From the IMG/VR virus record IMGVR_UViG_2917413769_000004: 34,875 bases of DNA. One strand, 5' to 3'. How positions within the stretch are numbered: position 1 is the first letter of the stretch; each line of letters starts with the position of its first letter. Under the pieces are notes generated by a model. The model was not told the DNA's origin and ran no database searches. It was given only the letters and a program-made list of their open reading frames with translations. The position numbers were made by a program, and so were the translations under genes. The DNA is from a virus. Taxonomy: Duplodnaviria > Heunggongvirae > Uroviricota > Caudoviricetes. Shown here piece by piece: positions 33,671-34,474 of this stretch.

Positions 33671-34088
33671 GCAGCGTCTTATTCAACTCATCCATATTGC
33701 CCGCAATGACCTCCAGATGGATGAGGATACCTACCGCCAGATGCTACAGGGGCTGACCGGCAAAGCCTCAACCAAAGGGATGGATACCACACAACTAAAC
33801 CGCGTGCTGGAATCCATGAAAAAGAAAGGCTTTTGCATTAAGTCTGCCGGGAAAGCCAGGCCCGGCTTACCGCTGGATAGCCATCCGCAGTCAAAGAAAA
33901 TCCGTGCGCTATGGCTTGAAATGGCTACGGCAGGCGTCGTCCGTGACAGTTCAGAGCAGGCGCTGGCGCTATGGGTTAAACGGGAAACGGGCATCAGCGC
34001 GTTACGCTGGCTCAGCAATGAGCAGGCAAGTAGCGTGATTGAGAAACTGAAGAAGTGGCAGCGCAGAGCTGCGGGGGTGAAGCAATGA
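33660..34088 (+). CDS. gemA: GemA-like regulatory protein (Mu gp16 family)
   Basis: Start at MMTRQRLIQLIHIARNDLQMDEDTYRQML with AGGAG RBS; position just upstream of mor. Confidence 0.6.
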   Translation: MMTRQRLIQLIHIARNDLQMDEDTYRQMLQGLTGKASTKGMDTTQLNRVLESMKKKGFCIKSAGKARPGLPLDSHPQSKKIRALWLEMATAGVVRDSSEQALALWVKRETGISALRWLSNEQASSVIEKLKKWQRRAAGVKQ

Positions 34089-34474
34089 GCGACCTGAATC
34101 AGTTTCGTAGTAAAGGGCCGGAACTGTTGGTAGAGCTGGCACAGCATACCTCTGAGACCGTCCGCGAGATTATTGATATCGAACCCGCAGTTGCCGACCA
34201 GATTGGTCAGGCCGTCGCGAACCGCATGATGCAGGTCTGGGGCGGGCAAAACGTCTATTTTCCGATGGGCATGGTCTGGAAGGTCAGCCAGCGCGATCGG
34301 GAAATCTTTCTGGAGTTTGACGGGCGCAACCATCACGAACTGGCCCGCAAATTTGGTGTTTCACTACAGTGGGTTTACAGCGTGGTGAAGCGAGTCAGAA
34401 AAGAAGAACTGGATCGGATGCAGGGCAAACTGTTTGATGGCGAACTTGATGCCGATATGGGGAAAAAGGAGTAA
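34085..34474 (+). CDS. mor: Mor-family transcriptional activator (Mor/C family)
   Basis: Start at MSDLNQFRSKGPELLVELAQH...; C-terminal HTH LARKFGVSLQWVYSVVKRVRK; ATGA overlap with the GemA-like stop. Confidence 0.8.
   Translation: MSDLNQFRSKGPELLVELAQHTSETVREIIDIEPAVADQIGQAVANRMMQVWGGQNVYFPMGMVWKVSQRDREIFLEFDGRNHHELARKFGVSLQWVYSVVKRVRKEELDRMQGKLFDGELDADMGKKE

Follow-up and report, generated by a model that had tools for sequence, protein, structure and literature searches.

A single Mor-family activator gene and four Mor-type late promoter candidates in a BcepMu-like transposable prophage

Introduction

Proteins of the Mor/C family are about 100-150 amino acids long and consist of an acidic N-terminal half and a basic C-terminal half with a C-terminal helix-turn-helix (HTH) (PMC2582627). 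The promoters which depend on Mor or on C have a -10 element but no -35 element and carry a 16-bp dyad centred at -43.5 (PMC4390567, PMC4287176, PMC2582627). The Mor site at the Mu promoter Pm consists of two inverted repeats of 5 bp on either side of a G/C-rich spacer of 6 bp (PMC4390567, PMC4287176), whereas the C sites read TTAT-N5-6-ATAA (PMC2582627, PMC12867686). In addition, the Mu C protein binds the beta clamp through its C-terminal QPDLF, and late transcription requires this motif (PMC12867686).

In phage Mu both family members are present. Mor (gp17) has one target, Pm, which drives the expression of C; its gene is the last of the early operon, overlaps gemA by 4 bp and has a terminator just downstream. 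The C protein (gp21) is expressed from this Mor-dependent middle promoter, its gene adjoins the lysis genes, and it directly activates about four late promoters (lysis, protease/head, baseplate). Bcepmuvirus phages, namely BcepMu (gp01) and phiE255 (gp32), have a terminal mor next to gemA, and RefSeq names BcepMu gp01 a 'late transcriptional activator'. In our literature searches we found neither an account of late promoters of the BcepMu type nor experiments on phages with a single Mor. Here we describe a prophage with the same terminal arrangement of gemA and mor, contained in a stretch of 34,875 nucleotides (below: the window) from the IMG/VR virus record IMGVR_UViG_2917413769_000004.

Results

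The window is almost wholly occupied by one prophage. The late genes are found on the minus strand, from the holin gene (23850) down to the tail fibres, and the central region (24000-27450) comprises genes for a DUF2441 protein, a Dam methylase, a cI-like HTH repressor and small HTH proteins. The early operon (plus strand) and the late operons (minus strand) diverge from this central immunity region. The element is a BcepMu-type (Bcepmuvirus-like) transposable prophage: it encodes a DDE transposase and a MuB-like ATPase, has an inverted early operon with terminal gemA-mor and P2-like contractile tail genes, is inserted at variable sites and ends in ...CA. BcepMu is syntenic with the window over its whole genome, shows the same inversion of the early operon against the late genes and has the same late-promoter core; the two differ in host and G+C content, and the window has an invertible tail-fibre segment with an invertase, the Dam methylase and the DUF2441 gene in place of the BcepMu accessory genes. 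Near-identical DNA is present in GenBank as Klebsiella phage KP12 clone KP12_2 and Escherichia phage Phi06_2974 B, and phage PhiKM, which is classified in Bcepmuvirus, is 87% identical to the window. A complete relative, found in E. coli 21KM1392, shows that what lies outside the window, ∼300 bp, is limited to the remaining 3' part of the invertase gene and a further 79 bp.

The right end of the prophage (34526-34635, plus strand) terminates in ...TAATCA, and direct comparison places the end at ...AAGTCTAATCA, position 34635, 160 bp from mor. Here the homology of the relatives stops: in 17 complete E. coli genomes related prophages match through position 34635 and then diverge, the host genes beyond being rumB, gadC, an aldolase gene or a decarboxylase gene. 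As the right end is fixed while the host flanks vary, the element is a transposable, Mu-like prophage. Two direct repeats TCTTCCCAT in the right end (34564-34572 and 34584-34592) may be transposase-binding sites. The prophage of E. coli 21KM1392 interrupts rumB/rlmC, is flanked by a direct duplication of CCATAG or CATAG (positions ∼1362-1367 and 36320-36325 of that locus) and has the ends TG...CA, in keeping with Mu-type transposition.

The early operon has the gene order DUF3102, DDE transposase, MuB-like ATPase, DUF3164, DUF2786/7168, GemA, Mor. The transposase (DDE/rve, 28374-30143, plus strand) and the MuB-like AAA ATPase together span 28374-31320 and were identified with Pfam and by synteny with BcepMu gp09/gp08. 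A candidate early promoter, TTGACA-16-TACAAT (11/12 matches, found in a consensus scan only), is located at 26851-26878 on the plus strand, divergent from the gene of the cI-like HTH_3 repressor (26424-26930, minus strand) in the immunity region. Downstream of this candidate, Pfam and PHROG scans identified a Ner-like protein (26902-27144) and a winged HTH protein (27144-27449). At the other end of the operon the gemA homologue (33621-34088, plus strand; Pfam GemA, 2.6e-40) overlaps the start of mor with its stop codon by 4 bp (ATGA). Thus, mor is the last, translationally coupled gene of an early operon of ∼7.6 kb, and the window has no gene between mor and the terminus. Directly 3' of mor a hairpin followed by UUUU (34482-34525, plus strand) has a minimum free energy of -25.1 kcal/mol (z = -3.7; 1 of 200 shuffled sequences was as good); it is probably the early-operon terminator and corresponds in position to the terminator downstream of mor in Mu.

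A first-pass annotation of this DNA had recognized a Mor-family gene at 34085-34474 as the last gene before the terminus, not adjacent to any late gene. Both statements hold: the gene is terminal on the plus strand, far from the late operons on the minus strand, and it encodes a full-length Mor/C-family protein of 129 aa. The Pfam profile Mor (PF08765) is covered from 1 to 107 of its 107 positions (E = 1e-42, 144.9 bits with a cut-off of 24.9), and PHROG 532, 'late transcriptional activator', matches with 2.9e-44. In the PDB the nearest, and only, relatives of the protein are Mu Mor (1rr7) and Mu C (9l0x). In the alignment the protein is 53% identical to BcepMu gp01, about 30% to Mu Mor, which also has 129 aa, and 27% to Mu C; the local identities by BLASTP are 30% (Mu Mor) and 35% (Mu C). 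With bit scores of 53.1 against Mu Mor and 52.4 against Mu C the protein is equidistant from both, so that pairwise scores assign it to neither the Mor nor the C branch.

The beta-strand linker of C has the invariant residues 70G, 71G, 75Y, 77P and 79G (PMC2582627). The corresponding GG-x3-Y-x-P-x-G of the window protein (G53, G54, Y58, P60, G62) is invariant in the alignment of the window protein with Mu Mor, Mu C, BcepMu gp01 and PhiKM. The HTH, ELARKFGVSLQWVYSVVKRVRK, coincides with HTH_23/HTH_29 signals in Pfam at residues 79-111 and is near-identical in BcepMu gp01, which fits the common DNA motif of both phages (see below). The turn of the HTH reads FGVS in the window, YGVT in Mu Mor and RLS in Mu C and is therefore Mor-like. 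The C-terminal motif is QGKLF; it differs from the QPSLL of Mu Mor and, as a Q-x-x-L-F motif, resembles the clamp-binding QPDLF of Mu C. Residues 1-64 comprise 8 acidic and 4 basic residues, residues 65-117 comprise 8 acidic and 12 basic residues, and in size, charge distribution and HTH the protein agrees with the description of the family. It is predicted to bind dyads at -43.5 of promoters with only a -10 element and to activate the sigma70 RNA polymerase there, and candidate sites of this geometry are present.

It had also been noted that a second, C-like activator was not seen. Mu Mor, Mu C, the window protein and 100-odd homologues went into a hidden Markov model, with which hmmsearch --max was run on every stop-to-stop open reading frame (25 aa or longer, six frames); phmmer, with Mu Mor, Mu C and the window protein as queries, was run on the same set. 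The window, KP12_2 and the complete prophage of 21KM1392 gave one Mor/C match each with an E-value of about 1e-68, the next best match having E = 0.4, and the same single match was returned when Mu Mor or Mu C alone served as the phmmer query. Since the 21KM1392 prophage covers the ∼300 bp missing from the window, the statement extends to the part outside. BcepMu, PhiKM, Ralstonia phage YO107_2, Pasteurella phage AFS-2018a and Pseudomonas phage JBD25 likewise gave one match each. As a positive control, the same model recovered both Mor and C in Mu. Thus, no second Mor/C gene was detected by the six-frame search in the window, KP12_2, 21KM1392, BcepMu, PhiKM, YO107_2 and AFS-2018a. According to Pfam and PHROG the small open reading frames of the early and immunity regions include no Mor/C member; they encode the cI-like, Ner-like and winged HTH proteins and several unknowns. 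When 50,697 phage records were searched with the window protein by tblastn, 108 records had a match, and among the matches listed the records with two places were all Mu-type (Mu-like Escherichia phages, D108, SfMu and Yersinia vB_YpM phages).

The three shared motifs which had been noted in the late region at 4503, 10319 and 23902 are indeed exact copies of CTTTAAWATC on the minus strand upstream of late operons; the number, however, is four, as the site at 16494-16536 had been missed. All four promoter candidates are on the minus strand. P1 (23876-23918; dyad TAACGCGCTTTAA, -10 GATGCT) precedes the holin/lysis-terminase-portal operon, with 27 nt between the -10 T and the holin ATG. P4 (16494-16536; dyad TAAAGCAGATTAA, -10 CAGACT) precedes the protease/scaffold-capsid operon, whose protease/scaffold gene is at 15367-16464. 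P2 (10293-10335; dyad TAATCCCCTTTAA, -10 CATACT) precedes the tail chaperone-tape measure operon and lies just after a terminator-like GC hairpin with a T-run. P3 (4477-4519; dyad TAAACGCCTTTAA, -10 AATACT) precedes the gpW/baseplate-tail fibre operon. P4 is a diverged, more symmetric copy which was found by comparison with BcepMu, where it is conserved upstream of gp32, and PhiKM, where it is conserved as well. For this reason a position weight matrix derived from the three original sites assigned 25-31 bits to these sites, far more than to any other position, and only about 11 bits, on both strands, to P4.

Four promoter regions were taken from each of the window, PhiKM and BcepMu, and the alignment of these 12 is gapless through the core. 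This core consists of a TAA-N6-TTAA dyad, no -35 element and a -10 element of the type xAxxxT followed by G. Invariant in all 12 regions are T43, A44, T53, A55 and A57 of the dyad and A-N3-TG at the -10 element; A45, T52 and A54 are near-invariant. Between dyad and -10 element there are always 22 bp, whose sequence has freely diverged, even between the window and PhiKM. When the -10 element is set at -12 to -7, the dyad is centred at -42.5 to -43.5. With 3-4 of 6 consensus positions the -10 elements are weak.

From the columns of the window, PhiKM and BcepMu we derived the pattern TAA-N6-TTAA-N-A-N22-A-N3-TG. As it is partly derived from sites which it then finds, only the scans of the Ralstonia phage, the Pasteurella phage and Mu are independent. 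The window has four exact matches, all on the late strand and directly upstream of late operons, where 0.15 matches would be expected by chance with one mismatch allowed. The window contains no other strong Mor-type site, and none before any candidate regulator gene. BcepMu, which contributed to the pattern, has three matches (0.04 expected), the core being found upstream of the holin, protease and gpW genes, and the Ralstonia phage, which was outside the pattern building, likewise has three matches (0.04 expected), at equivalent positions; its site at 18078-18120 probably corresponds to P4. Pasteurella phage AFS-2018a, with a Mu-collinear gene order and one Mor, has TCTTTAAAGCGCTTTAAAATC or variants which are 1-2 bases off before the lysis, protease, tail-assembly and baseplate genes, and shares the dyad at the four equivalent positions with one mismatch each; in this AT-rich genome the pattern count alone (5 matches, 2.2 expected) is not significant. 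In the whole Mu genome the pattern, with one mismatch allowed, found Pm (AGTAA-AGCCGG-TTAAT ... TATCCT-G), which has the same spacing from dyad to -10 element as the window sites and even the G after the -10 element. [quoted passage not shown]

Some other candidates were rejected. A dyad-like match within the invertase gene (194-219, 14.6 bits) and copies of CTTTAAWATC with one mismatch at 7914 and 26127 are located inside genes and lack a -10 element at the right distance, and we regard them as chance matches. A plus-strand match at 23907-23949 is the mirror reading of the palindromic dyad of P1 and not a separate site. An earlier candidate for P4 at about 16600 (TTATAAAGGCTTTAC) has the wrong spacing to any -10 element and is the centre of a long conserved palindrome.

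Discussion

The pattern derived from the late promoter regions finds Pm but none of the C promoters when applied to Mu, and thus the late promoter candidates of the window are of the Mor type. In fact they share with Pm the TAA...TTAA half-sites, the G/C-rich 6-bp spacer, the centre around -43.5, the spacing to the -10 element and the lack of a -35 element, whereas the sites of C follow TTAT-N5-6-ATAA. Judged from their sequences, the window has Mor-type sites in places where Mu has C-type sites. The window protein corresponds to neither Mu activator entirely. Like Mu Mor it belongs to the Mor family and is encoded by the last gene of the early operon with a 4-bp overlap to gemA and a terminator just downstream; it is not equivalent to Mu Mor in acting on a middle promoter which drives a second Mor/C activator, as the window has neither a second gene nor an additional site, nothing follows mor, and the Mor-type sites precede four late operons. 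With Mu C it shares the family and the predicted role of activating about four late promoters directly. It is not equivalent to Mu C either, as the predicted sites read TAA-N6-TTAA and not TTAT-N5-6-ATAA, and as mor, coupled to gemA in the early operon, is not transcribed from a Mor-dependent middle promoter and does not adjoin the lysis genes.

We suggest that the single Mor protein most likely binds the dyads at the four promoters without -35 elements and thereby directly switches on the late operons. The one-step activation which the first-pass annotation had proposed thus gains strong computational support from the single Mor gene and the four Pm-type sites. Upon induction, the promoter candidate at 26851-26878 would drive the early operon with mor as its last gene. 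Mor would then occupy the TAA-N6-TTAA dyads near -43 and recruit the sigma70 RNA polymerase, and the lysis/packaging, head, tail and baseplate operons would be turned on together in one step from the predicted start sites. Such a programme would have two tiers, early and then late, instead of the three of Mu (early, via Mor to C, and then late). The delay of late expression would follow from the position of mor at the far end of the early operon, and coupling to replication through the C-like, putatively clamp-binding QGKLF may lengthen this delay.

Several other explanations have to be considered. Mor could activate a regulator outside the Mor/C family, for example, the winged HTH protein (27144-27449) or the product of an unknown open reading frame, and this regulator would in turn recognize the four motifs. 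The prophage does encode several small DNA-binding or unknown proteins (winged HTH, Ner-like and open reading frames without known function), and we assigned the protein which binds the motif by inference. Nevertheless, we consider such a hidden two-step cascade unlikely: no Mor-type site precedes any of the candidate regulator genes, the four late sites being the only strong ones; the sites agree with the experimentally defined Mor site of Mu in half-sites, spacer length, position and -10 spacing (PMC4390567); and the genes of the candidate regulators lie in the immunity region or among the first of the early operon, so that these proteins would be made before Mor. It is also conceivable that the motif is not an activator site but an operator for a repressor or a nucleoid protein of the host, or an RNA or DNA structure, while read-through or constitutive promoters supply the late transcripts. 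Like many host-factor sites, the dyad stands out by its A/T content from G/C-rich surroundings, and in three of the four promoter regions the -10/+1 stretch is overlapped by hairpins. This seems quite improbable in view of the fixed 22-bp spacing to xAxxxT+G at 12 sites in three phages with invariant positions resembling A(-11) and T(-7), of a motif that lacks a -35 element and is situated strictly upstream of the operon starts, in case of P2 right after a terminator-like hairpin, and of a geometry equal to that of Mu Pm.

Finally, the prophage might be a defective derivative which lost a C-like gene by a right-end deletion beyond mor. That mor abuts the terminus, and that KP12_2 diverges right after mor and has an extra 110-aa open reading frame there, would be compatible with such a loss. 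On the contrary, complete phage genomes (BcepMu, phiE255, Ralstonia phage YO107_2, B3-like Pseudomonas phages) also have a terminal mor, the right end is identical to the base in the 17 E. coli genomes, which differ in their flanks, as would be expected for an active transposable end, and the same model search found no Mor/C match in KP12_2 beyond mor. We therefore regard a deletion as highly improbable and keep to the direct activation of the late operons by Mor.

The B3-like phages, which have siphovirus tails, show how far this layout extends. In JBD25 gp01 is the single Mor-family gene and, as in the window, terminal in an inverted early operon, and in Fc02, H71 and other B3-like records the only tblastn match is at a genome end. 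The layout with a single terminal Mor is thus the norm for BcepMu-like and B3-like transposable phages and not special to this prophage. The Mor protein of JBD25 is about 40% identical to that of the window, and several late operons of JBD25 share the motif CTTCCAAAAGAC instead of TAA-N6-TTAA; a diverged Mor with a different late motif is what co-evolution of the activator and its sites would give. The motif occurs as (TTTTCGC)CCTTCCAAAAGAC upstream of the lysis, protease and tape-measure operons of JBD25 (∼13340, ∼21750 and ∼27255).

These comparisons allow a more tentative proposal on the origin of the Mu cascade. The two-tier circuit could be common and possibly ancestral, and Mu C could have arisen as a lineage-specific duplicate of mor, with a change of half-site to TTAT/ATAA and a takeover of the late promoters. 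In this view the window protein would combine Mor specificity with a C-type clamp tail, and timing would be set by operon position and replication coupling instead of by a middle step. The arrangement offers a natural comparison with the three-tier cascade of Mu: with Mor-type sites in C-type places the origin of C by duplication becomes testable, as does the question whether clamp coupling substitutes for a middle stage. For annotation it means that 'Mor' in BcepMu-like and B3-like prophages is to be read as a late-gene activator and not as a middle regulator, and that a simple pattern suffices to predict the four late promoters. The mechanism is not a new one, and close relatives of the prophage are already in GenBank; but as we found no open-access description of a conserved Mor-type regulon of four promoters, this regulon may be a small new observation.

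Some further features of the promoter regions are conserved. At P1, P4 and P2 the Shine-Dalgarno or start region can form a hairpin of 5-7 bp with the -10/+1 region (23850-23884, 16464-16502 and 10266-10301, minus strand; z -1.7 to -3.0), of which the stems are kept in PhiKM and the loops have changed. A transcript initiated at the promoter itself would lack the 5' arm, so that the hairpin would block translation solely on read-through transcripts. At P3 the ATG of gpW follows the last T of the -10 element after 7 nt (4471-4483, minus strand) and has no Shine-Dalgarno sequence; the same spacing is found at BcepMu gp49 (30806-30819) and in the Ralstonia phage (∼5315). To judge from this spacing, the gpW mRNA is possibly leaderless.

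Between the virion morphogenesis (G-like) and protease genes a long palindrome, GGCTGTATTACCTTTATAAAGGCTTTACAGCC, is present at ∼16594-16625 (minus strand), which is conserved in PhiKM (∼4955-4990) and, with a changed stem, in BcepMu (∼18745-18775). The corresponding position in Mu is occupied by a terminator and the strong gyrase site. The DUF2441 gene (minus strand) and the D12-class Dam methylase gene (plus strand) are located at 24226-25806 between P1 and the immunity region, and neither of them has a Mor-type site, unlike mom of Mu, which is C-dependent.

Two of the related records deviate in their own way. KP12_2 departs from the window just before the mor stop codon (34496-34948 compared with 34466-34635 of the window), and its 110-aa open reading frame takes the place of the conserved phage end, which could reflect an assembly chimera or an alternative end. 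AFS-2018a has a fifth dyad-like site within the early region and a non-Mor 'transcriptional regulator' reading frame directly after mor (coordinates 5082-5124 and 7918-8283 for these features).

The invertible tail-fibre segment is found at 1-2456, with the invertase gene cut by the left edge of the window. It comprises amino acids 1-108 of the invertase (360-37, minus strand), an alternative tail-fibre C-terminus with assembly genes (350-1214, plus strand) and the active tail-fibre genes (1186-2456, minus strand). Relatives cover only 51-58% of this segment, and the host-range cassettes therefore vary.
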